Positions 186 to 35,310 of a DNA stretch of 61,265 nucleotides are shown here, one piece after another. A program made the translations under genes and the position numbers. The notes beneath the pieces were generated by a model, which did no database searches, was not told the origin of the DNA, and saw nothing but the letters and a program-made list of their open reading frames with translations. Each line of letters starts with the position of its first letter. Within the stretch, counting starts at the first letter, position 1. Source of the stretch: a virus. Location: positions 1-61,265 of IMG/VR virus record IMGVR_UViG_3300037420_000518, one strand, 5' to 3'.

Positions 186-1031
186 ATGACCCCAGGCGTA
201 CACATTGGTTTACCGGCAGAGAAGTATTTCAACTCCCCTGGAATTTCAGCTTCGATGCTCAAGATTCTGCGGGACAAAACCCCTCTGCACCTCAAGTGCA
301 TGATGGACCGCAGGGAAGACCCTGAGGCGACAGACTCACAAATCTTCGGTTCCCTCTTCCATTCATGGGTGCTGGAGCCTGAAAAGGTTGAATCCACGTT
401 CTATGTTCGCCCAACTGTTCTGGATGGCGAACCGTGGCATGGTAACCGGAAAGTCTGCAAGCAGTGGGTGTCAGACCATGGCGACCGTCAGATAGTCACG
501 CTCGACCAGATCGAGCACGTCAAAGGCATGTCCGAGGGGCTGCGGCGCAATAAACGGTTCATGGAACTATTTGAGTGTGGCGAGTCAGAGGTTTCCCTTG
601 CTGCCTTGGAGCCGAATAGCGGAATGATGCTACGCGGACGGCTGGACAGGTTCCACCGAACAACTCCGTACATTCTGGACCTGAAATCCTGCGTCTCCGC
701 TCACCCGGATGAATTCGGGAAAACACTCTGGAACTTCGGGTACTTCGCACAGGCGTTCTTTTACATCTGGTTGCGACAACTCTGCGGGTACGAGACCGAT
801 ACTTTCCATTTCGTGGCTGTGGAGAAAACGCCACCATACGCCAACAAGATTTATACCCTCCGGATTGGCAGCCCGTGGCTAGATGCTGGGGCGCTCATGG
901 TAAAGCGCGACTTGGCCCTATACGCTCACTGCGTTCTAAACGACTACTGGCCAGGATACGACCAAGAAGAAACAGAACCACTCATGCCACGCTGGGCAGC
1001 AAACGAACTCGCAGAAATCGGAGTCGCTTAA
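186..1031 (+). CDS. PD-(D/E)XK exonuclease (RecE/YqaJ-type, DUF3799-like), partner of the annealing protein
   Basis: 281 aa. 'GRLDRFHRTTPYILDLKS' fits a D...(D/E)xK nuclease core. The start lies 2 nt after the recombinase stop, and an SD AAGGAG lies upstream. Confidence 0.7.
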   Translation: MTPGVHIGLPAEKYFNSPGISASMLKILRDKTPLHLKCMMDRREDPEATDSQIFGSLFHSWVLEPEKVESTFYVRPTVLDGEPWHGNRKVCKQWVSDHGDRQIVTLDQIEHVKGMSEGLRRNKRFMELFECGESEVSLAALEPNSGMMLRGRLDRFHRTTPYILDLKSCVSAHPDEFGKTLWNFGYFAQAFFYIWLRQLCGYETDTFHFVAVEKTPPYANKIYTLRIGSPWLDAGALMVKRDLALYAHCVLNDYWPGYDQEETEPLMPRWAANELAEIGVA

Positions 1032-1035
1032 ATTT

Positions 1036-1359
1036 ATGATAAAGTTGAACATCGACGTAACAAAAATTCCGAAGGAGCGGATCAAATCCAAGCCTGAGTG
1101 GAAAGGGAAGTTCCTGGATGTGGTTTTGGTGGACAAGCCAGACGACAGGGGTAACGCCGGTTTTATTGCCGTGGAAGTATCCAAAGAAGAACGCCAATCT
1201 GGAGCACGCGGCGAGATTATTGGGAATTGGCGCTATATCGGAAGCAACAACCAGCAACAGGCAAGCGGATCACGCCAGGATCAACGCAGGCCACAGGGTA
1301 AGCCTACGCCGCCTCGGGATGTAGACCTTGACCCGGAGTCGGATGATTTAGATTTCTGA
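1036..1359 (+). CDS. Small SSB-like protein (107 aa) with an acidic C-terminal tip ...DPESDDLDF
   Basis: Third gene of the annealase/exonuclease module. It has a basic N-terminal domain, a Gln/Pro/Arg linker and an acidic tail ending in Phe, like SSB 'DDDIPF' and T7 gp2.5 tails. Confidence 0.45.
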   Translation: MIKLNIDVTKIPKERIKSKPEWKGKFLDVVLVDKPDDRGNAGFIAVEVSKEERQSGARGEIIGNWRYIGSNNQQQASGSRQDQRRPQGKPTPPRDVDLDPESDDLDF

Positions 1360-1368
1360 TCCAATTTG

Positions 1369-1493
1369 TGCAATCGGCGGCGTGGACGGTGACACGCTAA
1401 AAGAACAGTGCTGCTCTTTCTGGTTCGATCCCAGACTTGAACTTGGTAGGCGTGAAGGAAGTACACAGAAGGTTCAATTCCTTCCCGATTGCA
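1369..1493 (+). ncRNA. Oversize tRNA-like RNA (125 nt) with a 9-bp terminal helix, a D-like arm and two T-arm consensus hairpins, but no canonical anticodon arm
   Basis: Terminal helix 1369-1377/1485-1493. D-like arm GCGTG-GACGGTGA-CACGC at 1380-1397. T-arm GAAGG-TTCAATT-CCTTC at 1468-1484. Extra T-like arm TCTGG-TTCGATC-CCAGA at 1419-1435. Confidence 0.55.
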
Positions 1494-1524
1494 CCCATTT
1501 TCAACCCAATACAGACACACAAGC

Positions 1525-1752
1525 ATGACCCGTCAAGAATCACTGAAAACCGCTATCGCTGAAGCGAACCGATTTATAAAAAAGGCCAGGGAAGCCTTGA
1601 ATGTAGAAGATAACCGAAAAACAGCAGAATCCGAAGGCAAGTACGTGTATCACTACGATAAGCCTGGAGATTCGTGCAAATTCGCTTCCGCCGAGCGTTC
1701 CAGTATGGATTTAACGCGATGCTTAGCCCAGTTGAGGAAATCAGAGAGGTAA
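1525..1752 (+). CDS. Hypothetical protein (75 aa)
   Basis: The internal ATG at 1525 was chosen because the longer ORF (1489) would overlap the tRNA-like element. The protein is helical and charged. Confidence 0.55.
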   Translation: MTRQESLKTAIAEANRFIKKAREALNVEDNRKTAESEGKYVYHYDKPGDSCKFASAERSSMDLTRCLAQLRKSER

Positions 1753-1756
1753 TCCT

Positions 1757-2041
1757 ATGTCCCGAAAACCAACTCCCAAGAAGCCTAAGATAGACTGGAG
1801 CCAGAGAACGCTACTGGTTAATCCTGACAACGGAATGGTTGTTCAGACAAGCGGTAACTCAACCGAGAAATCGTTTGAGGCAACCGTAGTATGGACAGGA
1901 AAAAGTCCATTTGGACTTGGATATTACGGAAAAGCGTGGAGGAAGCTTTCCTTCAGCCTGTACGAAGGCGCAGTTCTCCTCTCTCGATTCCCTGAGCGTT
2001 TCCAGGTAACGGCTGTAGACCCTATCAAGGAGGCGAAATGA
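1757..2041 (+). CDS. Hypothetical protein (94 aa)
   Basis: An SD GAGAGG precedes the ATG at 1757. The stop overlaps the next start (ATGA). Confidence 0.6.
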   Translation: MSRKPTPKKPKIDWSQRTLLVNPDNGMVVQTSGNSTEKSFEATVVWTGKSPFGLGYYGKAWRKLSFSLYEGAVLLSRFPERFQVTAVDPIKEAK

Positions 2042-2199
2042 TGTATTTTTATTCAATTGTACTCTGTAATATTATCGGTATTACAAGGTTGTACTGTGGA
2101 GACACAGTATCCGCATCAGTTCTATTTGTAGGAAGCTGTCTTATTTGGTGCGCATTGGACATCCGTGACACGATCAGAGAAAATAAGGAGTCCAAATGA
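2038..2199 (+). CDS. Small hydrophobic protein (53 aa), not in the ORF track (<60 aa)
   Basis: SD AAGGAGG upstream. ATGA overlaps at both ends. The sequence 'MMYFYSIVLCNIIGITRLYCG...VLFVGSCLIWCAL' looks like a membrane peptide. Confidence 0.5.
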   Translation: MMYFYSIVLCNIIGITRLYCGDTVSASVLFVGSCLIWCALDIRDTIRENKESK

Positions 2200-2369
2200 T
2201 CGGCTGGCTATGGCGGGTTATCGTTGGCCGCTTCTCTTCGTGTGAGCACAAGTTTGAAGTGCATCAAGAAATTGACGTTGTTTCACCGTATGGAGGTAAA
2301 TGGCACGCCTACGATCTTAGGTGTGAGCACTGCGGAAAGATGAAGCGGTTTGATAGCAAGTCTAGATGA
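2196..2369 (+). CDS. Small Cys/His-rich protein (57 aa), not in the ORF track
   Basis: SD AAGGAG upstream and ATGA overlaps at both ends. Contains 'SCEHK...RCEHCGK'. Confidence 0.5.
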   Translation: MIGWLWRVIVGRFSSCEHKFEVHQEIDVVSPYGGKWHAYDLRCEHCGKMKRFDSKSR

Positions 2370-2685
2370 AACGCACCCGACTAAAGAGCGCCAGTAGTGA
2401 AAGAGCCAAACAGCTAAGGCAGTATAAGAAACTACGGGCTGAATATCTCAAGGAACATCCAATTTGTGAGGCTTGCGGAAAAACCCTTCTTACGACATCC
2501 ACCATAAGGTTTCCCGCGTTTCCGATTGGTTAAACTATACCCCTTACTGGATGGCTGTGTGCCGGGTTCCTTGTCACAATTTCATCCACCAACAACCCGC
2601 TATTGCGGAGGATCGAGGATGGATTATCCGCATCCGAGAAACTTTCAAAGAACACATTCAATCCCTGAACCAAGATGACCTATGA
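2366..2685 (+). pseudogene. HNH-type endonuclease reading frame split by a -1 frame change at the A5 run 2479..2483
   Basis: Frame A reads 'MKRTRLKS...HPICEACGK' and stops at 2531-2533. Frame B (the track ORF 2473..2685) continues 'NPSYDIHHKVSR...AVCRVPCHNFIH'. Joined, they give a contiguous CxxC...HH...CH..IH HNH core. Confidence 0.6.
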
Positions 2686-3029
2686 GCTACTGCCGATTCA
2701 GCAGTGATGATTACCAGTGTGACGTGTATTGCTACGCAGACGTTTGTGGTGGCTTCAGAACGCATGTTGCTTCCGTTCGGTTTGTGCTTTCTGGAAAGCT
2801 TCCGCCTCCCGTGGATAAAAGCGATATCACGGCTTGGCTTGCGCGACATAGAGCCGTCACCGTATTAGTCAAAGATTGTGAACGTGTTGACATTGGGTTG
2901 CCTTACGATGGTGAGGTTTTTAACGACGATACGGCACAGGAGGCAGCGGACAGATTAGAGATGTTGAAGTCGACCGGGTACAACGTCCCGCAATACGCAA
3001 TCGACGCCCTAAGAGACGAAGCAGATTAA
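2682..3029 (+). CDS. Hypothetical protein (115 aa)
   Basis: ATGA overlap with the upstream frame. Globular composition. Confidence 0.6.
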   Translation: MSYCRFSSDDYQCDVYCYADVCGGFRTHVASVRFVLSGKLPPPVDKSDITAWLARHRAVTVLVKDCERVDIGLPYDGEVFNDDTAQEAADRLEMLKSTGYNVPQYAIDALRDEAD

Positions 3030-3042
3030 CATTTCAAAGAAC

Positions 3043-3294
3043 ATGGACGAACTATTCCCTATCCCGAATACGCAGTCACCTCGACTTCAACAGTGGGTGG
3101 AACGGAACCAAGTACGTACAACACCGCCCATTGGTCTTCAAGGACCGTGGTGGATGGCATGGAGTCACGGCATTGAGGCATTTGGTGAAACTGAACTTGA
3201 GGCTCTTGAGAATCTTGCTGTACTCCTTGGTTCATCTTGGAAAGACGATAGCAAACCGGAACCTGAACAACAACCTGCACGGAACACGAGGTAA
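3043..3294 (+). CDS. Hypothetical protein (83 aa)
   Basis: Co-oriented ORF that fills its gap. The overlapping ORFs in other frames look like shadows. Confidence 0.5.
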   Translation: MDELFPIPNTQSPRLQQWVERNQVRTTPPIGLQGPWWMAWSHGIEAFGETELEALENLAVLLGSSWKDDSKPEPEQQPARNTR

Positions 3295-3300
3295 ATCCCG

Positions 3301-3708
3301 ATGCCTACTGATCTCCCAACAATAAAGAAGTGCCTTGAAACGCAAGACAACCGTATCACGGCGCACCCGATGTTCATCGTTCAACAGAAGCGCAAGATTT
3401 CCTCTGAGAATAGCGACGAATACGAGTGGGTGGATGATGAATGGTGTGAAGTCGATGCGAAAAAGTCCGCTGCCCTGGATAGATACTACGAGCGTTTCGA
3501 CCGTGCTCCAGAGGGCTACACGCGCCATCAAATCGCCATCATCTGGGAATTCGTAACCGCCTGCTTCACGGAACAGGGGTGCAAGGATTACATCGCTTGC
3601 AATGGTCACAACCTCCATGAGCCGCGCATCTACGTTGAGAGCGCCCACAGAAACGCCGAGTGGCAATTCTTGCGTGCTCACTTGATGGGAATTGAATTCC
3701 CTGAATAA
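3301..3708 (+). CDS. Hypothetical protein (135 aa)
   Basis: Co-oriented ORF with globular composition. The 159-aa minus-strand ORF over it is Arg/Leu-rich shadow. Confidence 0.6.
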   Translation: MPTDLPTIKKCLETQDNRITAHPMFIVQQKRKISSENSDEYEWVDDEWCEVDAKKSAALDRYYERFDRAPEGYTRHQIAIIWEFVTACFTEQGCKDYIACNGHNLHEPRIYVESAHRNAEWQFLRAHLMGIEFPE

Positions 3709-3754
3709 CAACCCGCCGCTAAGATGTGGTAAACCCTGACAAGTAGAATCCCTT

Positions 3755-4027
3755 ATGGCAAAAGCACTGTTTAATTTTCACTTTGACTGCGGCAGAGGCG
3801 GATCGCTTTACGGTACGTTCATTGCGGACACCGCTGACGTAGAAAAGCTGATTAAAAATGAGACCGAAATCTACTTCGGTGAAGTCCTTGGAAAGCACTC
3901 CGACATTTCAGGGCCAGTGGAGGAATGCGACATTACGAAAGTTACCGAAGACCAAGAACTAATTGAAAAGCTCCAAAGTCTCGGCATCGCGAATGGAATC
4001 AATCCTTTCGACTATTTGAACGGGTAA
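3755..4027 (+). CDS. Hypothetical acidic protein (90 aa)
   Basis: Co-oriented ORF rich in Glu and Asp. Confidence 0.55.
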   Translation: MAKALFNFHFDCGRGGSLYGTFIADTADVEKLIKNETEIYFGEVLGKHSDISGPVEECDITKVTEDQELIEKLQSLGIANGINPFDYLNG

Positions 4028-4189
4028 TCACTTCCTCTCCCAGAACCACTGAACAGGGCCAAGCATGGGAATAACCCGGCGTTTCCCACGGAGATCCGGG
4101 TTAACCCAAATGGCGGGTTTCCTCTCTTCTTTCTTGAGTTTAGGAAGCTGGCAAACGGGACAATTGTGCTGGTGTTTGGTGTTTTTCAT
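4028..4189 (-). CDS. Possible small CxxC protein (53 aa) on the opposite strand, not in the ORF track
   Basis: ATG at 4189 and TGA ending at 4028. 'MKNTKHQHNCPVCQLPKLKKEERK...' fills an otherwise empty 200-bp gap. No clear SD. Confidence 0.3.
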   Translation of the reverse strand: MKNTKHQHNCPVCQLPKLKKEERKPAIWVNPDLRGKRRVIPMLGPVQWFWERK

Positions 4190-4230
4190 TCGGCAACACT
4201 TCGTTTAACGCGGAAAAATCAGACGTACTT

Positions 4231-5043
4231 ATGAGTAACAAAATCCAAGTTTTTTCAAGCGGTGGAGGAACTCAATCAGCAGCCATTGCCGCTTTAATCA
4301 TTCAGGGTCGCCTTCCAAAGCCTGACTTCGTTGTGATCGCAGACACCGGGCGCGAGCGACAAACGACTTGGGACTACCTGGATTCGGTGATACGACCAGG
4401 ACTTAAGAAGGTTGGCCTTGAGGTTCACCGTATTGGTCCTGAATGGCAGAGCATTCCGGCGCATGGAAAAAACTGGAAGAGCCACAATAACGCAACAATC
4501 ATTCTTCCTGGGTACACGTCGCAGACCGGCTCAACTGGAAAGTTTAGCGGGTTCTGCTCTGCGCGGTGGAAGCAGGAGACGCGTGACAGATACCTTTCAA
4601 AGCAACTCGGTCTAACGCGTTCGATGTTCCGCTCATGGATAGGATTTTCGGTGGATGAGCCGAGACGATATTTGCGAATGATGAACGGTGAGGAATACAA
4701 GAAGGGTCAATTATGGTTTCCGTTAGTAGAAGGTGTTCGCCTGCGCCGATTCGAGTCCATTGATGTAGTCAAAAAGATGGGATGGCCGGAACCGCCTCGT
4801 TCGGCCTGCTATATGTGCCCGAACCAAGGCGACGATGAATGGATAGACCTAAAAGCCAATTCACCGCAAGAGTTCCAAATGGCTGTTGAGTTGGAGCGCC
4901 AGGTTCGACAGGAGGACCGGTTTTTCTGGTTCCATCCATCATGCGTCCCGCTGGATCAGGTAGACTTCACAAAGCCTACAGAGAGCAGCCAGATCGAGCT
5001 TTTCAACCGCAGGGAATGCAGTTCAGGAGTATGCTTTGTATGA
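4231..5043 (+). CDS. PP-loop ATP-pyrophosphatase family enzyme (PAPS-reductase-like)
   Basis: 270 aa. The N-terminal 'VFSSGGGTQSAAIAAL' matches the SGGxDS-type PP-loop. A C-terminal 'CYMCPNQ' Cys pair is present. Confidence 0.6.
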   Translation: MSNKIQVFSSGGGTQSAAIAALIIQGRLPKPDFVVIADTGRERQTTWDYLDSVIRPGLKKVGLEVHRIGPEWQSIPAHGKNWKSHNNATIILPGYTSQTGSTGKFSGFCSARWKQETRDRYLSKQLGLTRSMFRSWIGFSVDEPRRYLRMMNGEEYKKGQLWFPLVEGVRLRRFESIDVVKKMGWPEPPRSACYMCPNQGDDEWIDLKANSPQEFQMAVELERQVRQEDRFFWFHPSCVPLDQVDFTKPTESSQIELFNRRECSSGVCFV

Positions 5044-5201
5044 ACAAAAGATTATTATGGAAGGCGTTTCTAGGGTGTGTTATCGCAAACATCATTGCGC
5101 AGCCCATAGCCATTGTGCTTGATGCGCCTCCTAATTTGGGCGTTATGCTGGGATTTACGGTTTCAATGATCGTTTGCAGCGTACTCATTGCAAGGGCTTA
5201 A
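5040..5201 (+). CDS. Small membrane protein (53 aa)
   Basis: The internal ATG at 5040 overlaps the upstream stop (ATGA). Two hydrophobic stretches. Confidence 0.5.
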   Translation: MNKRLLWKAFLGCVIANIIAQPIAIVLDAPPNLGVMLGFTVSMIVCSVLIARA

Positions 5202-5203
5202 CC

Positions 5204-5377
5204 ATGACCCCCCTAGAGCAGCTACAGGCATACCTTCGCGTAAACCCGGAGGACCTTGAACAGGTCTTGGAGGGCATAGACAGGAATATACTGCGAGCCG
5301 GTTTCATGGGAAACGACGCCGAGGTTTTGCGCCTCCTGGAACTCAGCGGGAATTTGCTTTTGGATGCGGATAATTAA
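5204..5377 (+). CDS. Hypothetical protein (57 aa)
   Basis: The ATG at 5204 follows the previous stop by 2 nt. The longer track ORF (5174) would overlap. Confidence 0.45.
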   Translation: MTPLEQLQAYLRVNPEDLEQVLEGIDRNILRAGFMGNDAEVLRLLELSGNLLLDADN

Positions 5378-5398
5378 AATTTTTTTGTAGTTGCGTGT

Positions 5399-5411
5399 CA
5401 GTGAATCACTG
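5399..5411. promoter_or_regulatory. Palindrome CAGTGA-A-TCACTG inside a wider TTTGTA...TACAAA dyad; operator or hairpin candidate
   Basis: Perfect 6+1+6 inverted repeat in the 68-bp A/T-rich gap upstream of the T5orf172 gene. Confidence 0.35.
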
Positions 5412-5445
5412 ATTACAAAGTAGGGAAACAACGCGCTAACCACTG

Positions 5446-6075
5446 GTGGAAAGCGCCCGCACTAGCACTGCGGACCACAAAAAGAAGACTATGTTGACAA
5501 CCAGCCGTTTTTACAGCCCAGCAGTTGAAAAGTGCCGTCGTCTTACTACGGGTGCTACGCTTTTCAACGCTGGGCTGCTTCGTTCTATGGATCATCAGTT
5601 CCCCGGATTTGTTTATTTCATGAGGCACGGACGCACTGGTCTTATCAAGATCGGCTATTCGTCCAAGCCAGCGGCAAGAGAGAAGACGCTGCAAGCCGAA
5701 GATCCTGGATTAGAGCTTGTATTCTCGATGTCAGGAAGCCGTGAGACTGAACGGCGATTGCACTTGAAGTTTCACTCTAAGCGCGTCCGTGGTGAGTGGT
5801 TTTCTCTGGATTCAGACGACCTTGAAAATGCGGTAGGTGTGTTGGTTTCAGAGGAACTGAAACGCGTCAAGGTTGTGATGCAGCCGAAAAATCTCCCTAA
5901 TAAGTCGCTCCTTGACGAGAAACCGTCTACATCCGGTTACTATTTTGACAGGAGGGGCAGAAAGCACTGGTACTCATTAGGCGAATCAACCACCCCAGAA
6001 CCAAACCTAAACCCGTCGATCCCAGCCTCTAAAAGCCGTTTTGTAGCGATGAAGGAGGCGCTGGGACGTGGCTAA
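5446..6075 (+). CDS. T5orf172 / GIY-YIG-like domain protein
   Basis: 'GFVYFMRHGRTGLIKIGYSSKPAAREKTL...ERRLHLKFHSKRVRGEWFSL' matches the T5orf172 pattern. The start is uncertain: GTG 5446, ATG 5491 or ATG 5587. Confidence 0.6.
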   Translation: MESARTSTADHKKKTMLTTSRFYSPAVEKCRRLTTGATLFNAGLLRSMDHQFPGFVYFMRHGRTGLIKIGYSSKPAAREKTLQAEDPGLELVFSMSGSRETERRLHLKFHSKRVRGEWFSLDSDDLENAVGVLVSEELKRVKVVMQPKNLPNKSLLDEKPSTSGYYFDRRGRKHWYSLGESTTPEPNLNPSIPASKSRFVAMKEALGRG

Positions 6076-6781
6076 GAGATTTTCTGACACTAACCGTTTT
6101 GATGATCCTTGGTACTGCCAGCTCAGCCCAACGGCCAAGCTAACTTGGGAGTTCATCACCGCCAAGTGCGACAACGCAGGCGTTTGGGAGCCAAACTTCC
6201 ACATTGCTAAAGCATACCTTGGGGATTTTGATTTCAAGCGAATCCTGAAAGAGTTCGGAGACCGTATAAAAGTACTCACGAACGGAAAATGGTGGATTGT
6301 AAAATTTGTTCGATTCCAATACGGAGAGCTTCTCGAAACCTGTAGACCCCATGCGTCAGTGATAAGGCTTCTTAAGGCTCATGGCCTTTGGGAGTATTAC
6401 TTAGATACCCTATCCGAAGGGTATCCAAAGGGTATAGATACCCTTAAGGATAAGGATAAGGATAAGGATAAGGATAAGGATAAGGATAAGGATAATACCA
6501 CCGGTCAAACAGGAAAATCCTCAATCGAGGTAAATCCTCAGGTGTCCGTTCCAAATTTGGAGCAAGTGCTCAATGTGGCGTCAATGCGGGGTGTGGGGAA
6601 AGACATCGCTGAGAAGTTTTACTACACCATGATCGGATGCGGATGGGTAGATGAGCGTAAACGTCACGTGGTGGATTGGACGGCATACCTGGTTCGGTTT
6701 GGAACGAGCTGGAGAAGCGCGGATACCCCATCACAACGAGACCCTCAAAAAAGAACCGTACGCCAAATAACCGCCCTCTAA
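6068..6781 (+). CDS. Replication organiser/initiator-like protein with an internal (KD)8 linker
   Basis: GTG start preceded by AGGAGG. The gene overlaps the dnaB start (TAATG). The N-terminal domain 'WYCQLSPTAKLTWEFITAKCDNAGVWE' is typical of phage replisome organisers, judged from memory. Confidence 0.5.
   Translation: MAKRFSDTNRFDDPWYCQLSPTAKLTWEFITAKCDNAGVWEPNFHIAKAYLGDFDFKRILKEFGDRIKVLTNGKWWIVKFVRFQYGELLETCRPHASVIRLLKAHGLWEYYLDTLSEGYPKGIDTLKDKDKDKDKDKDKDKDNTTGQTGKSSIEVNPQVSVPNLEQVLNVASMRGVGKDIAEKFYYTMIGCGWVDERKRHVVDWTAYLVRFGTSWRSADTPSQRDPQKRTVRQITAL
6446..6493 (+). repeat. Perfect hexanucleotide microsatellite (AAGGAT)x8 encoding (KD)8
   Basis: Eight perfect tandem units counted within the replication-organiser ORF. 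Confidence 0.95.
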
Positions 6782-13855: not shown

Positions 13856-15529
13856 ATGACAGACCCACAGAAAATCGTTTACGTCCCGCGCCAAGGCGAC
13901 GGGAAATGGATCGTGCCGGAATTATCGCTTTACGAGCACGATGGAAAATGGCGCACAACAGGAATTCACAACCAGCCATCAGATAAAACTCGAACCTACC
14001 TAATCCCCATCCCCGCTGTTGAGCGGTGGGTGCTGCTGGAGCGGGGAGAGGATGTGTTCCAAGAAGGAGACGCGTTTATCAGCATCTCTAGTGAAATCCT
14101 ACAAATCGCCACAAACTATATTGGAAATCGCGTATTCCAAGACGCTCAAACACAATATGTACGCCGCCAACTCTTCCCCGACATCGACGCGCTTTTGCGG
14201 GAACGGGATGAGGCGAAAGAGCGTGAAGCGTTGGCTGTAGGAATCGTTCTCAAGGTCAACGAACTACTAGGATTCTCTGATTTCAGCGACCCGTCACCAC
14301 TTTACGGAGAGATTAAGCGCCTCCAGTCCCAGCTTGAGAGCGTGACGAAGGATAGGGATGAATCCAGGAAAGAAAACCACTCGCTTCGAATCGCTCTGCA
14401 ATTTTATGCCAACGGGGATCATTTCCAACGCGAAAAGCATGACGGCGAAGAGTTTTGCATCTGCACAGACCAAGGCGCAACTGCTCAGGAGGCTCTAAAT
14501 GGTCAAGAAGCGGAAATTTTCAATGAACTGAAGTCGGCCAACGAAAACGCCGCGAGGTTGCGTAGTGAGGTTCAATCTTTGTCAGATCGCTACAAGAACT
14601 CTCAAAACAAGTTAGCGGCCACGACTCGCGAGCGCGACGCCCTGCAAGCCAAGCTCACCGACGCAGAAATCGAGGTGAATAACTGGAAGAAATGGCAGGC
14701 TGAAGCTGTTTCACTCACCAACAGCAGAACCATTGAGCGCGACGAATGGAAAGCTAGATATGAGCACACGCAAGCCAAGCTCACGGCAGCGGAGAGTCGA
14801 ATTCAAATGAAGGACGAAAATTATCTTCATTTGCGTTCAATAGCAGAATCCGCAGAGGCGCGGGTGAAGGAGTTAGGAGATAAACTCAGCCATGTCGCCC
14901 ATGAGCGGATGCAGCTCGAATCAGAACTTTCCACCATCCGCGCCGAGCACGAGAAGCTGAAGGAGTCGGTATGTACGGCGTTAGGAATGCCCGTAGTTCC
15001 CAATGACGGCCAGTTGATTATTGATCGAATCAACAAGGGTAGGAAGAAGTATCTTGATATAACTACTAGGATTCACGAATTGGCTCACGCGTACACAACC
15101 GAATCGGCCAGCCTAGATGATGCGTTTAACGCTCTGGATATGTGCGTCAAATGTTTTGAGATGGATAAGCAGCACAGGGCACAGGCTTTTCAGGAACTCG
15201 ACGCCCTAAAATCCTCCCTCCGCTGGATTGCGGTGTCAGAGCGGATGCCGAAGCAGGAGGATGCAGGAGAAAACAATCTAGTGGAGGTTGTTAGGTACGA
15301 TGGTCAGAGGCGGTATATGGCATGGAACTTTGTGCAATATGACCAAGTCATTAAGTTCTTCCGTAAGCTTACCCCCGGCCCCGAACCCGCCAAGACCGAG
15401 GCGCAGAGGATCTATGAAGCGTATTGCGCTAGCCGTCACGACGCAGATTTCGGAATCGCGGAGCAAGCACGAGTCATCGGCGCAATCGAGTTCACGCAGA
15501 ACTACCTGGCGAAGAAGGAGGCGGAATGA
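13856..15529 (+). CDS. Long coiled-coil protein (557 aa) with a C-terminal DUF551-like domain
   Basis: About 300 aa of heptad-like E/K/R/L/A/Q sequence. C-terminal 'RWIAVSERMPKQEDAGENNLVEVVRYDGQRRYMAWN' fits the DUF551 pattern. Confidence 0.6.
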   Translation: MTDPQKIVYVPRQGDGKWIVPELSLYEHDGKWRTTGIHNQPSDKTRTYLIPIPAVERWVLLERGEDVFQEGDAFISISSEILQIATNYIGNRVFQDAQTQYVRRQLFPDIDALLRERDEAKEREALAVGIVLKVNELLGFSDFSDPSPLYGEIKRLQSQLESVTKDRDESRKENHSLRIALQFYANGDHFQREKHDGEEFCICTDQGATAQEALNGQEAEIFNELKSANENAARLRSEVQSLSDRYKNSQNKLAATTRERDALQAKLTDAEIEVNNWKKWQAEAVSLTNSRTIERDEWKARYEHTQAKLTAAESRIQMKDENYLHLRSIAESAEARVKELGDKLSHVAHERMQLESELSTIRAEHEKLKESVCTALGMPVVPNDGQLIIDRINKGRKKYLDITTRIHELAHAYTTESASLDDAFNALDMCVKCFEMDKQHRAQAFQELDALKSSLRWIAVSERMPKQEDAGENNLVEVVRYDGQRRYMAWNFVQYDQVIKFFRKLTPGPEPAKTEAQRIYEAYCASRHDADFGIAEQARVIGAIEFTQNYLAKKEAE

Positions 15530-15798
15530 GCAATATCATTCCACTAATTACGCACCCAATGGGTAGACATTGGGATCAACCTCCATTGGAATGTATTCTC
15601 ATTGACGACAAGCACGCCTTAATGTCGAAGTTTTCATTCGACCGGCTTGCTGAATATTCCACGTCAATGCCGTCTGGAGTTTATCCCGGCAAAATGTGGA
15701 AACGCAATCAACGCGGCATCTGGTTCCTGGGTTGGTACGGTGAGTGTGAAGACCCAACAATGTGTACTAACAACTGGAGGGAAATTCTCATAGCATGA
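15526..15798 (+). CDS. Hypothetical protein (90 aa)
   Basis: ATGA overlaps at both ends. Confidence 0.6.
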   Translation: MSNIIPLITHPMGRHWDQPPLECILIDDKHALMSKFSFDRLAEYSTSMPSGVYPGKMWKRNQRGIWFLGWYGECEDPTMCTNNWREILIA

Positions 15799-16115
15799 AC
15801 CTGACCCCCGAAGAACTAGACAGGCTGGAGAGGCTGCTCGAATGCGAAGATGCTATCAGCGATGAAGAGAATCAGGAGTTGTTAGCAAGCATTCCCACCC
15901 TAATCCGCGAGGCCAGAGAGGCAGCTAGACTGAGGGATGCGATTGACGGTCTTAAGCAAAATGCCGCTTTTGGTATCGGAGACTGTAAATCTAGCAGGGA
16001 TTATGCAGAAGCAGTTAGAGATAACGAAAAGATAGCAAGATGCGACGGTGCGTTAAAAGTCTTGCAGCTAATAACGAATGAGATTGAAGCCCTACAGCAA
16101 CCCGGAGAACACTAA
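15795..16115 (+). CDS. Hypothetical acidic helical protein (106 aa)
   Basis: ATGA overlap upstream. The tRNA-like element follows. Confidence 0.6.
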   Translation: MNLTPEELDRLERLLECEDAISDEENQELLASIPTLIREAREAARLRDAIDGLKQNAAFGIGDCKSSRDYAEAVRDNEKIARCDGALKVLQLITNEIEALQQPGEH

Positions 16116-16124
16116 ATAATAACT

Positions 16125-16258
16125 TGCGACCTGTGGCGAAATTGGTAGACGCACCTCTCGATAGAGGATTCACGAAACGGAGTAGAACGAGTAAGCCGTT
16201 AGGGCTGAGGGACGAAACGAAGTAGCGAATGATGGTTCAAGCCCATCCAGGTATCGCA
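16125..16258 (+). ncRNA. Oversize tRNA-like RNA (134 nt). It has type-II (Leu-like) 5' half and a consensus T-arm, but a 78-nt core without an anticodon loop
   Basis: GCGACCTGT-GGCGAAATTGGTAGACGC at 16126-16152. T-arm GATGG-TTCAAGC-CCATC at 16231-16247. Terminal helix 16125-16133/16248-16258 has a 2-nt bulge. The core has a CCTCT-CGAT-AGAGG mini-hairpin. Confidence 0.6.
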
Positions 16259-16273
16259 CAGCGGAGAACAACA

Positions 16274-16498
16274 ATGAGCACTACAAAACAAATCACGTAC
16301 GACGGAATTCCGTCTGACCAAATCACTCAGGAGCAACTTGAGGAGTATGCGCGCAAACACAAGGACGACTACATCAAAGGATTCGATAGTGTCAGCGAAG
16401 CAGTTCGGCTTTACGATTGCCTAATCAACTTAGTGGAAGAAGGCGATGTAACAGGCGCGAATCTTCACGAATACGGAATGAGCGATCAGGACCTATGA
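16274..16498 (+). CDS. Hypothetical protein (74 aa)
   Basis: The internal ATG at 16274 was chosen because the longer ORF (16229) overlaps the T-arm of the tRNA-like element. Confidence 0.55.
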   Translation: MSTTKQITYDGIPSDQITQEQLEEYARKHKDDYIKGFDSVSEAVRLYDCLINLVEEGDVTGANLHEYGMSDQDL

Positions 16499-34962: not shown

Positions 34963-35310
34963 AAAGAAAAGCCCCACCAGTACCTACATTAGTCTCTGAC
35001 GCTCTAGACGTCAGGCTTCGGTCTGGCAGGGCTGTTGTGAGCGCCCAATATTAACGACCTTTGGTTGTCAGGCAGGAACGGTCATGCTGCCGCGCTCGTT
35101 TACCGGAAAGGCTTTCGTTTTCCCATACGTCAGGTTTTCCAGTGACAGCCAGGTAATGTTATTCCCGGAACCTGCATCCCTCACGCATTGCCTGTTAAGG
35201 CTTCCGATGCATGAACCGTACAACAGCCAGAACATCACAGTAAAGCCCAAACTTATCAGGCAACGCTATTGACTACGCCTAGGGGTTTGCCGCATACTGC
35301 GTCATCCAAT

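Follow-up and report, generated by a model that had tools for sequence, protein, structure and literature searches.

The locus and the parts of the element

The window, by which we mean the whole 61,265-nt stretch of phage DNA that was analysed, carries a tRNA-Leu-like gene of 133 bases at positions 16126-16258 (+). It lies in a long + strand operon, flanked on either side by a gene of the same orientation, and is, in its predicted shape, the upper half of a leucine tRNA without a usable anticodon. The features at the locus, and a second tRNA-like element of the same genome, are as follows.

16103-16111 (+): direct repeat, copy 1, CGGAGAACA, within the 3' end of the ORF 15795-16115
16112-16270 (+): apparently inserted 159-bp segment, with a new stop codon, an A/T-rich leader, the tRNA-like element and copy 2 of the direct repeat
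16126-16133 (+): acceptor 5' strand, 8 nt, GCGACCTG; T16125 is position -1
16134-16153 (+): U8, G9, a tRNA-Leu-type D-arm and A26; D-arm GCG-AAATTGGTAGA-CGC with A14, A15, G18G19 and A20a
16154-16167 (+): hairpin CCTCT-CGAT-AGAGG in the position of the anticodon arm, 5 bp with a 4-nt loop; pair probabilities 0.70-0.86
16172-16185 (+): 14-nt repeat, copy 1, ACGAAACGGAGTAG
16194-16206 (+): weak hairpin AGCC-GTTAG-GGCT in the predicted ensemble, 4 bp with a 5-nt loop
16212-16225 (+): 14-nt repeat, copy 2, ACGAAACGAAGTAG
16230-16247 (+): U48 (T16230), then the T-arm GATGG-TTCAAGC-CCATC (16231-16247), from a hairpin search and the family covariance model
16248-16258 (+): acceptor 3' strand CAGG-(TA)-TCGC with a 2-nt bulge, then A16258 as discriminator, from the sequence, ARAGORN and the family model
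16262-16270 (+): direct repeat, copy 2, CGGAGAACA, which gives the Shine-Dalgarno GGAG for the gene starting at 16274 (gene call, identical Logan contig)
1370-1493 (+): second tRNA-like element, with a perfect 8-bp acceptor stem, a D-like hairpin and two T-arms

All sequence motifs that an earlier note on this DNA had described for the element lie where it had placed them. In BLAST searches the 5' part, GCGACCTG-T-G-GCGAAATTGGTAGACGC, matches annotated phage tRNA-Leu genes, with 23-24 nt identical to the tRNA-Leu of Erwinia and Klebsiella phages, in agreement with the note's view that the element begins with a Leu-type acceptor strand and D-arm. The nucleotides of the D-arm region (16134-16153) are invariant columns in the alignment of the family described below. 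Perfect 5-bp/TTCRANN hairpins number only six in the 61-kb window, and the consensus T-arm that had been proposed at 16231-16247 is among them. This arm was recovered by the hairpin search and the family model, and the acceptor 3' strand with its 2-nt bulge from the sequence, by ARAGORN and by the family model. The element keeps U8, A14, A15, G18G19, A20a, U48, U54, U55, C56 and A58; it retains the parts from which the tRNA elbow and the acceptor/T-arm stack are formed, and is without an anticodon arm.

ARAGORN at relaxed settings and the family covariance model agree that the acceptor closes as 8 bp with a 2-nt bulge, the alternative register having 5 bp and 2 mismatches; the D-arm and T-arm are canonical. 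In the 8-bp register, and only there, A73 is present, and the element shows a Leu D-arm (TTGGTAGACGC), a 5-bp T-stem, U48 (T16230), U-1 (T16125) and a discriminator A followed by C (A16258, C16259). U at -1 is the family norm, present in 59 of the 78 listed members. Since A16258 is followed by C-A, CCA is not encoded.

The 9-bp repeat bears on how the element reached this position. When the 40-nt flanks of family elements are shuffled, about 0.5% of them share a repeat of 9 nt or longer. Deletion of 16112-16270 joins ...CCCGGAGAACA to ACAATGA and so yields an ATGA stop/start overlap, the arrangement also found at the neighbouring junctions 15526-15529, 15795-15798 and 16495-16498. Because removal of the segment restores this overlap, the 159 bp look like an insertion between two formerly overlapping genes, and the perfect flanking repeat suggests that the insertion was recent. 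If so, the arms may be intact because the element is young, and not because it is under selection in this phage. No promoter or terminator matches were found near the element.

The insert and the missing anticodon arm

Between D-arm and T-arm lie 78 nt, a length inside the range of the family. The element lacks the anticodon arm of a canonical decoding tRNA (5-bp stem, 7-nt loop, U33, purine 37): no stem with 5/5 pairs and a 7-nt loop occurs in 16150-16230, where three candidates reach 4/5 pairs only. As the earlier note had observed, the anticodon position is taken by CCTCT-CGAT-AGAGG, which forms in about 85% of the predicted ensemble.

The note had also described the insert as duplicated and as containing a degenerate second T-arm, in parallel with the two T-arms of its 1369-1493 element. 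The 14-nt repeat is real (13/14 identical, spacing 40; by our own estimate the chance of such a repeat within a 78-nt stretch is about 3e-4), but a tandem duplication of a 40-nt unit was rejected beyond the 14-mer, as 42.5% of shuffles score as well as or better than the two units. The supposed second T-arm, AGCC-GTTAG-GGCT, forms in about 11% of the predicted ensemble. Since this hairpin is weak and the 40-nt units are dissimilar, neither the second T-arm nor the double T-arm parallel is demonstrated for 16126-16258.

Predicted structure does not exceed that of shuffles for the whole element (z = -0.06) or the insert (z = +0.25). The tRNA-like fold is only 2.0 kcal/mol less stable than the fold of minimum free energy. 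Readings of CGAAAC/CUGA as a hammerhead, twister or k-turn were dropped by eye, their cores being incomplete and Rfam silent. A role of the insert as antisense guide was likewise dropped, as complementarity to the own locus is at chance for the window element and the 79 listed family members; complementarity to the 26 tRNAs co-encoded in L421 does not exceed chance either (mean z = +0.26).

Standard RNA finders pass over the locus. ARAGORN at default settings, including the tmRNA search, calls no gene in the window; the Rfam tRNA model RF00005 has no match on 16050-16330 even at E <= 10; and at the gathering threshold the only Rfam match in the window is DUF3800-VIII, elsewhere, with no ribozyme or intron family at the locus. 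This accords with the earlier description of a Leu-type scaffold with a replaced anticodon domain. When introns were allowed and the threshold was lowered, ARAGORN called exactly two elements in the window, 16126-16258 and 1370-1493; the background in unrelated phage DNA is about one intron call in 55 kb. Moreover, 92 different artificial deletions of the element turn it into an ARAGORN tRNA call with many different anticodons, which means that the scaffold is of tRNA grade and the anticodon undefined. Standard annotation overlooks such phage elements entirely or, at best, labels them odd tRNAs.

Related elements in this genome and in other phages

The element at 1370-1493, which the earlier note had also taken to be tRNA-like, was recovered both by relaxed ARAGORN and by the family covariance model R1 (19.5 bits, E = 6e-4). 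Its T-arms lie at 1419-1435 and 1468-1484, and its discriminator A is followed by CC. The two elements share an unusual 8-bp acceptor stem, U-1 and A-C 3' flanks, in a genome where default ARAGORN finds no intact tRNA. A third tRNA-like element occurs in the sole relative of this phage. The window element is absent from the syntenic site of that relative; the note had named absence from close relatives as an objection to its reading, and the one relative available is distant.

No similar DNA was found among 50,697 phage records, and searches with the flanking proteins returned one self match, one identical Logan contig, from run SRR35148586, and the one distant relative. The sole other copy of the window element is 100% identical, and the covariation evidence given below belongs to the family and not to this locus. 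The 14-mer pattern has no more than chance matches in IMG/VR; in metagenome and genome contigs the 5' half has no matches and the T-arm half matches ordinary tRNAs only. The small neighbour protein phrog_24427 occurs at 23 viral loci, none of which has a related element.

A wider set emerged from a scan of IMG/VR for a Leu D-arm 65-95 nt upstream of a T-loop, from which members with at least 6/7 acceptor pairs were selected. It matched at least 120 loci, which yielded at least 79 unique phage elements with acceptor and T stems in tRNA register, where about 1% would be expected by our estimate to pass the filter by chance. Among the listed members, both sides change in 7/7 acceptor pairs and 3/5 T pairs, and 99.3% of acceptor cells are paired, a percentage that is inflated because members were picked by our own pattern and pairing filter. 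Despite unrelated inserts, at least 90% of the listed members conserve a T (U48) before the T-stem. Flanks are U-1, mostly A73, and C74, and inserts in this first scan measure 62-92 nt, both among the matches listed. The argument of the earlier note that two loci of the same architecture speak against decay is thereby strengthened: at least 79 unique elements share it, with covarying stems. Judged from the aligned sequences, the class from which such elements would be donated is under clear structural selection.

An anticodon arm is not a consistent feature of the family. A canonical anticodon hairpin is present in 8 of the 79 listed members versus 4.6 in shuffles, and the Rfam tRNA model, which detects many members at 31-47 bits and the window element not at all, aligns them only by skipping the anticodon arm. 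No closing helix or motif is common to the inserts, whose structure is mildly above that of shuffles (mean z = -0.9). One scaffold, AGTCAGG...CCTGACT, is represented by 113 unique sequences, with the 3' half located in 104; its inserts have no relation to one another and measure 23-122 nt, with three longer exceptions, and it occurs in several copies per genome, with up to eight on one contig. Family elements adjoin full sets of normal tRNAs. They have no conserved partner gene, the largest neighbour family being present at 5 of 86 loci only, and a search of 185,579 species genomes finds next to none of them, matches being confined to 5 short MAG contigs. This set of look-alikes in uncultivated phages is large and apparently undescribed.

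R1 aligns the window element over its full length (16127-16257; 47.2 bits, E = 1.4e-12) and is significant in the window only for this element and that at 1370-1493. For comparison, independent members mostly score 60-90 bits and the T4 tRNA-Leu 34.6. The window element differs from the family in having one extra acceptor pair and a 2-nt bulge where the others have an uninterrupted 7-bp stem.

Possible functions, alternatives and known systems

The reading that we favour, tentatively and with slightly less than half of our confidence, is that the element is a non-decoding mimic of tRNA-Leu which is cut out by tRNA-processing enzymes and possibly leucylated. It would be co-transcribed with the operon and cleaved at its 5' end by RNase P, for which the acceptor/T-arm stack, the elbow and the U at -1 would make it a substrate. 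tRNA 3' trimming and CCA-adding enzymes would handle the 3' end, so that a stable RNA of about 133 nt would be released and the operon transcript split. Leucylation without decoding is a more speculative step, suggested because the 8-bp register offers the A73, D/T-loop and 15:48 elements that bacterial LeuRS needs. The idea of charging, already raised in the earlier note, accords with published work: leucylation of E. coli tRNA-Leu survives the loss of the anticodon and variable arms as long as A73 and the D/T-loop contacts remain, according to the review PMC9976931, which cites Larkin et al. (2002). On the other hand, charging could be blocked by the bulged acceptor stem of 8 bp and by the lack of an encoded CCA. 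More speculatively still, the RNA might act off the ribosome, for example as an aminoacyl donor, or as a decoy or sponge that draws away host factors which bind or target tRNAs. The atypical acceptor, the silence of Rfam, the unencoded CCA, the unstructured insert and the absence in the relative would all count against a mimic.

Much of this evidence fits a functionless relic as well, which we consider somewhat unlikely: part of a tRNA or tRNA-like gene from a different phage would have been taken up through illegitimate or microhomology-mediated recombination and would be tolerated because the duplicated 9 bp restore the downstream ribosome-binding site. The direct repeat around the 159-bp segment and the gene overlap restored on its deletion are what such a capture would leave, and the bulged or mismatched acceptor, the unstructured insert, the unencoded CCA, the lack of relatives in phage, viral-contig, metagenome and genome collections and the empty syntenic site also suit it. 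Yet all nucleotides known to matter for the tRNA-Leu core are intact, and the genome, without an intact tRNA, holds two tRNA-like elements with the same 8-bp acceptor, U-1 and A-C flanks. A relic is also at odds with the structural selection on the donor class and with the fact that useless DNA is usually lost quickly from phage genomes.

A broader proposal, which we regard as unlikely, places the window element, as a divergent member, in a widespread and so far undescribed class of phage RNAs that are charged but kept off the ribosome, with a constant, LeuRS-competent upper half and a hypervariable lower domain of 23-122 nt. On this view the RNAs, of which a genome often has several paralogues next to a full set of tRNAs, would be processed like tRNAs and might, for example, act as decoys against defences that target tRNAs or donate aminoacyl groups. 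Within such a class, the variable domain could alternatively give each copy its own binding specificity.

That the element is instead an interrupted tRNA gene seems quite improbable. A 40-nt intervening sequence (about 16157/16158 to 16196/16197) would lie in the 5' strand of the anticodon stem, and its removal gives a class II tRNA with the stem CCTCG/TGAGG, the loop UUAGGGC and a 20-nt variable region, the anticodon loop being 16199-16205 (TTAGGGC) and the 3' stem strand 16206-16210 (TGAGG). Recovery of a canonical anticodon arm after excision of an intron had been named in the earlier note as refuting its reading; the 40-nt removal does give a five-pair stem and a 7-nt loop, but about 6% of shuffled Leu-type inserts do likewise, and the resulting anticodon AGG (A34, Pro codon) does not fit a Leu-type body. 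There is one such split-stem solution (5/5 pairs, split at 29/30 or 30/31), its TTAGG presumably resembles the UAG-Leu loop of E. coli leuW, and relaxed ARAGORN calls the two elements alone in the window, albeit against the background rate given above. The 20-nt "variable arm" barely pairs, and the 78-nt region has no Rfam intron or ribozyme match. A solution of this kind is found in 13 of the 79 listed Leu-type members against 7.4 expected, so that most are without one, and we know of no splicing machinery for such inserts in bacteria.

A control scan of type-I scaffolds does show that a genuine class of interrupted phage tRNA genes exists. After removal of a 45-60-nt insert, 28 of 42 such scaffolds regain a canonical anticodon arm (shuffles, 1.1 of 42). 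Their inserts come after 2-3 nt of the anticodon stem (at 28/29 to 29/30), near the split position in the window element, but the motifs of these inserts (a hairpin plus ACAGCAA, or GTTACTT) are absent from 16153-16230. As an observation in its own right, the scan revealed that some phage tRNA genes are split at position 28/29 by roughly 50 nt of inserted sequence in which a motif is conserved; we found no splicing mechanism described for them.

A DNA-level feature, i.e., a small mobile element that duplicates its target and has tRNA-like ends as terminal inverted repeats, or a recombination or attachment site that mimics a tRNA, is very unlikely: the 9-bp flanking duplication, acceptor strands that are inherently inverted repeats, the several copies of the AGTCAGG scaffold per genome and the HNH, T5orf172/MUG113 and recombinase zinc-ribbon domains encoded in the early region would fit, but target-site duplications in the family do not exceed chance, none flanks 1370-1493 or the relative's element, no integrase adjoins the element, scaffold-sharing copies have unrelated interiors, unlike transposon copies, and what compensatory changes keep is the pairing of the RNA, not its sequence.

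Present discussion treats phage tRNAs as aids to codon usage or as substitutes for host tRNAs that defence nucleases have destroyed. A natural tRNA that has lost the anticodon and keeps the parts for processing, folding and perhaps leucylation, as in the mimic that we favour, points to a role outside decoding. The architecture shared by dozens to hundreds of phage elements, with covarying stems, U48 and variable lower halves, makes such a role testable. As the window element is perhaps only a recently acquired copy, its value would lie mainly in pointing to the class.

Several known RNAs join tRNA parts to foreign sequence. The group I intron tRNA-Leu genes of cyanobacteria and plastids likewise carry foreign sequence in the anticodon region of a Leu-type gene; a group I intron was rejected here, as the insert has 78 nt against a core of about 200 nt or more, and neither an Rfam intron match nor intact loop halves were found. 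tmRNA and YrlA, as the window element, have a tRNA T-arm and acceptor joined to a non-tRNA domain. tmRNA was rejected in the absence of an ARAGORN or Rfam call, of G3:U70 (pair 3:70 is G-C or A-U depending on the register, and thus not the alanine identity pair) and of a tag reading frame. A YrlA or bacterial Y RNA was rejected as well: there is no Rfam match, no Ro/TROVE family protein is encoded among the 54 early-region ORFs, and YrlA RNA reportedly ends in a Ro-binding stem, whereas the ends predicted for the window RNA lie in an acceptor stem.

Non-decoding tRNA shapes embedded in longer transcripts serve as RNase P and RNase Z signals in mascRNA and menRNA, at the 3' ends of MALAT1 and MEN-beta, and in mitochondrial tRNA punctuation. 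By analogy, we propose that the window element may work like these processing signals, which are eukaryotic or organellar and share with it neither sequence homology nor an Rfam match.

Among phage RNAs, the T4 RNAs C and D (species 1 and 2) are stable RNAs of 119-139 nt which adjoin tRNA genes and whose role is unknown (PMC3014915). Like the window element they are phage-encoded and larger than a tRNA, and RNA C has a consensus T-arm. There is no sequence relationship: R1 aligns RNA C via the T-arm only (19.7 bits), and the similarity to RNA C in the shared GTAAGCCG and AGTAGCG was dismissed as being at chance level by estimate. The T4 RNAs also sit in a tRNA gene cluster, whereas the window phage has none.

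A further parallel is with the minimal tRNA-Leu substrates of E. coli, which show that leucylation can dispense with the anticodon domain (Larkin et al. 2002, as described in PMC9976931). Those are laboratory constructs, whereas the phage gene occurs naturally, has 78 nt in place of the anticodon domain and an 8-bp bulged acceptor, and does not encode CCA. In its 8-bp register the window element keeps the nucleotides that mark these substrates, namely A73, the D/T-loop contacts and the 15:48 pair.

Architecture and genomic setting of the tRNA-Leu-like element

The two tRNA-like elements of this phage genome are:
16126-16258, + strand: Leu-type tRNA scaffold with a 78-nt insert in place of the anticodon domain
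1370-1493, + strand: second tRNA-like element, between an SSB-like ORF (1036-1359) and a gene starting at 1525

Among the products encoded by the 61-kb genome are a large terminase, a portal, a DnaB-type helicase and a helicase/methylase. GC makes up about 50% of the sequence, and the + strand is purine-rich. Default ARAGORN predicts no tRNA or tmRNA anywhere in the window, and the sole Rfam match at the gathering threshold is a full-length DUF3800-VIII RNA (34968-35035, - strand, 49.9 bits). The Leu-type element is flanked by an ORF (15795-16115) and a 74-codon gene with its start at 16274. The + strand carries all the surrounding genes, and a search for nearby promoter- or terminator-like sites found none. 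A Pfam scan of 54 early-region ORFs (within 186-26752 and 58308-61153) detected DUF3799 (PDDEXK; ORF 186-1028), T5orf172/MUG113, an HNH endonuclease, a recombinase zinc-ribbon domain and a holin, and no RNA ligase, RtcB, CCA-adding enzyme, aminoacyl-tRNA synthetase or Ro protein.

All sequence features described in the earlier note are present, and its observation is confirmed: the element has the architecture of the upper half of a tRNA-Leu. The acceptor/D-arm of its 5' part matched annotated phage tRNA-Leu genes with 23-24 identical nt (BLAST, phage records), GATGG-TTCAAGC-CCATC is a consensus T-arm, and the acceptor closes with 8 bp and a 2-nt bulge. CCTCT-CGAT-AGAGG occupies the anticodon position, with a predicted ensemble frequency of about 85%, and no 7-nt-loop hairpin with 5/5 pairs occurs in 16150-16230. 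The description as a duplicated insert with a second T-arm was overstated: a 14-nt repeat spaced 40 nt apart is confirmed, but the rest of the 40-nt units is dissimilar (42.5% of shuffles score as high or higher) and the AGCC-GTTAG-GGCT hairpin is weak. The whole element is thermodynamically unremarkable (z = -0.06), and the enforced tRNA scaffold fold lies only 2.0 kcal/mol above the minimum.

The 1370-1493 element has a perfect 8-bp acceptor stem, U-1, a discriminator A followed by CC, two consensus T-arms (1419-1435 and 1468-1484) and a D-like hairpin, GCGTG-GACGGTGA-CACGC, whose CACGC could pair with an upstream or a downstream GCGTG. Since its acceptor stem is also 8 bp long, the 8/5 geometry recurs within this genome.

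A phage family of Leu-type scaffolds

We looked in other phages for a Leu-type D-arm too distant from the T-loop. The pattern TTGGTAGACGC-N(65-95)-GGTTCRA hit at least 120 IMG/VR loci; among the matches listed, at least 86 loci (at least 79 unique) show a 5-bp T-stem, at least 6/7 acceptor pairs and the exact tRNA register, a filter passed by chance at a rate that we estimate at about 1%. Among these listed matches, default ARAGORN called none, and with introns allowed it called 68 with scattered anticodons. The Rfam tRNA model gives 31-47 bits on many of the listed matches, but only by swapping the entire anticodon arm for a local end of 55-64 nt. Neither canonical anticodon hairpins (8/79 versus 4.6 in shuffles) nor split-stem solutions (13/79 versus 7.4) are enriched among the matches listed. 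A 39-sequence alignment from the listed matches, pre-filtered for pairing, shows two-sided changes at 7/7 acceptor pairs and three T pairs. Also among the matches listed, U48, the nucleotide 5' of the T-stem, is T in at least 90% despite unalignable inserts, with U at -1 and A73 and C74 as the flanking nucleotides. The inserts of the listed matches are only mildly structured and share neither a motif nor a fixed closing helix, and no neighbouring protein family is common to more than five of the 86 loci. No antisense match of the inserts was found, either to the loci that carry them or to tRNAs encoded alongside. Searches of the full-text literature, whose coverage is incomplete, turned up no account of Leu-type phage scaffolds that lack an anticodon, and an earlier description is possible.

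The commonest scaffold of the family is AGTCAGGTGGCGGAATTGGTAGACGC...ACAGGTTCGAATCCTGTCCTGACTA (AGTCAGG...CCTGACT), with wholly unrelated inserts. A scan for it returned 113 unique sequences (104 with the 3' half located), with insert lengths continuous from 23 to 122 nt and three longer outliers. Among 185,579 species genomes it occurs on five short MAG contigs only, and it was not found in cultured phage records. Viral locus L421 carries eight copies (984-3291; 79-155 nt) with unrelated interiors, one of them with a type-I D-arm, in an array that directly adjoins 26 ordinary tRNA genes (normal tRNAs at 479-6224); similar arrays occur in L409, L372, L389, L343 and L414. L108 (1-1128) has three oversized tRNA-like genes inside a 700-nt stretch; two of them are on the AGTCAGG scaffold, and one of these two has its insert in the D-loop region. 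The N-terminus of the ORF that follows reads by eye like a putative GIY-YIG homing endonuclease (IYGLY...VYVGKT), an arrangement that we take to be reminiscent of segB in the T4 tRNA cluster.

R1, the covariance model of the family, places the Leu-type element in it (16127-16257, 47.2 bits, E = 1.4e-12), scores 1371-1492 at 19.5 bits (E = 6e-4) and finds no further significant match in the window. Most independent family members reach 60-90 bits, compared with 34.6 for T4 tRNA-Leu and 19.7 for T4 RNA C. The element resembles the family in D-arm, T-arm, U48 and insert length and, with the acceptor read as 8 bp plus the 2-nt bulge and A16258 as discriminator, in its U-1/A/C flanks; it differs by one additional acceptor pair and the bulge.

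Apparent insertion context in the operon

16103-16111 and 16262-16270: 9-bp direct repeat CGGAGAACA, bracketing the Leu-type element
L098 5399-5522: tRNA-like element of the distant relative, non-syntenic, closed by a 7-bp stem and carrying two T-arms

Because of the 9-bp repeat and an ATGA overlap that is restored on removal, the element looks like a 159-bp insertion. When one repeat copy and the intervening 150 bp are taken out, the upstream ORF reads ...CCC GGA GAA CAA CAA TGA and the downstream ATG overlaps its stop as ATGA, a junction type likewise found at 15526-15529, 15795-15798 and 16495-16498. The duplicated end appears to re-create the downstream ribosome-binding site. When the 40-nt flanks of family elements are shuffled, about 0.5% contain a repeat of 9 nt or longer shared between the two sides, and none of this kind was found in the family, the 1370-1493 element or the L098 element.

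No useful relatives of the locus were found. An identical copy of the element lies on a Logan contig, and for the flanking proteins the only relative found is a distant one, the 65-kb JGI contig Ga0395908_0000242 (L098), at about 50% amino-acid identity. Genes are tightly packed at the syntenic junction of L098 and no element is present there, which fits the insertion reading. DNA patterns from the element returned only chance matches and ordinary tRNAs from viral, metagenome and genome collections. The T-arms of the L098 element are GTGAG-TTCGATT-CTCAT and CGGG-TTCGACT-CCCG, and its 3' part weakly matches the tRNA-Sec model (24 bits). An intrinsic terminator-like hairpin follows it at about 5621-5653.

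If the element was inserted, its intactness may reflect recency and not selection. A relic is, in our judgement, a somewhat unlikely explanation.

Interrupted tRNAs, proposed processing and known systems

That the element is an interrupted tRNA appears improbable. Relaxed ARAGORN (introns allowed, threshold lowered) calls exactly two genes in the window, this element, with a 40-nt intron, loop TTAGGGC and anticodon AGG, and 1370-1495. A dedicated search likewise yields one split-stem solution with 5/5 pairs (CCT and CG separated by 40 nt, loop TTAGGGC, TGAGG). However, such a solution also arises in about 6% of shuffled inserts, and relaxed ARAGORN makes about 14 intron calls on 775 kb of unrelated phage loci (about 1 per 55 kb). 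Moreover, default ARAGORN calls a tRNA after each of 92 different artificial deletions in the insert, and the anticodons that it reports vary widely; the anticodon is undefined on a scaffold of tRNA grade.

A control scan with the type-I D-arm TTGGTAGAGC covered IMG/VR loci L220-L336 (e.g., L279, L245, L277, L312, L240). Among the matches listed, removal of a 45-60-nt insert regained a canonical anticodon arm in 28 of 42 unique scaffolds, versus 1.1/42 in shuffles. The insert site in these listed matches follows 2-3 nt of anticodon stem (28/29 or 29/30); a hairpin and then ACAGCAA occur in 25/42 of the inserts, GTTACTT in others. We found no description of 28/29-interrupted phage tRNAs or their splicing mechanism in the full-text literature, as far as its incomplete coverage reaches. 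Since this outcome differs from that of the Leu-type scan, the oversized tRNA-like genes of phages fall into at least two kinds, tRNAs that are genuinely interrupted and Leu-type scaffolds without an anticodon arm. The element lacks both insert motifs and its putative anticodon is at odds with the Leu body, and it therefore fits the anticodon-less kind better.

Two Leu-type matches, L179 (~3275-3403, - strand) and L200, are genuine tRNA-Leu(UAA) genes carrying short inserts. That of L200 (~52 nt) includes ACAGCAA upstream of an intact anticodon arm; that of L179 comprises 44 nt between U34 and A35, the site of the cyanobacterial group I intron.

A DNA-level element is very improbable. As families, tmRNA, YrlA and group I introns were ruled out, with ARAGORN and Rfam silent and no Ro protein among the 54 ORFs (Pfam).

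The element is best filed as tRNA mimicry; within a broad phage family it is a divergent member, and its insertion is probably recent. It may well be a functional non-decoding mimic, a reading that we hold tentatively. Such an RNA would be co-transcribed with the operon and then cleaved by RNase P, a step that U-1, the elbow and the acceptor/T stack would favour; its 3' end would next be trimmed and receive CCA, leaving a stable non-decoding RNA and a cut operon transcript. The interpretation given in the earlier note is partly supported. E. coli LeuRS requires A73, A15:U48, G18G19, A20a and the D/T-loop pairs, and tRNA-Leu variants can still be charged when they lack the anticodon and variable arms (PMC9976931). 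The required nucleotides are kept if A16258 is the discriminator, so leucylation is possible, though the 8-bp bulged stem could block it; an off-ribosome role is speculation.

Among phage RNAs, the closest precedents are RNA C and RNA D of T4, two small RNAs of the tRNA region with roles that are still unknown (PMC3014915). The nearest functional analogues are tRNA-like processing signals, namely mascRNA/menRNA and mitochondrial punctuation, and laboratory minimal tRNA-Leu substrates.
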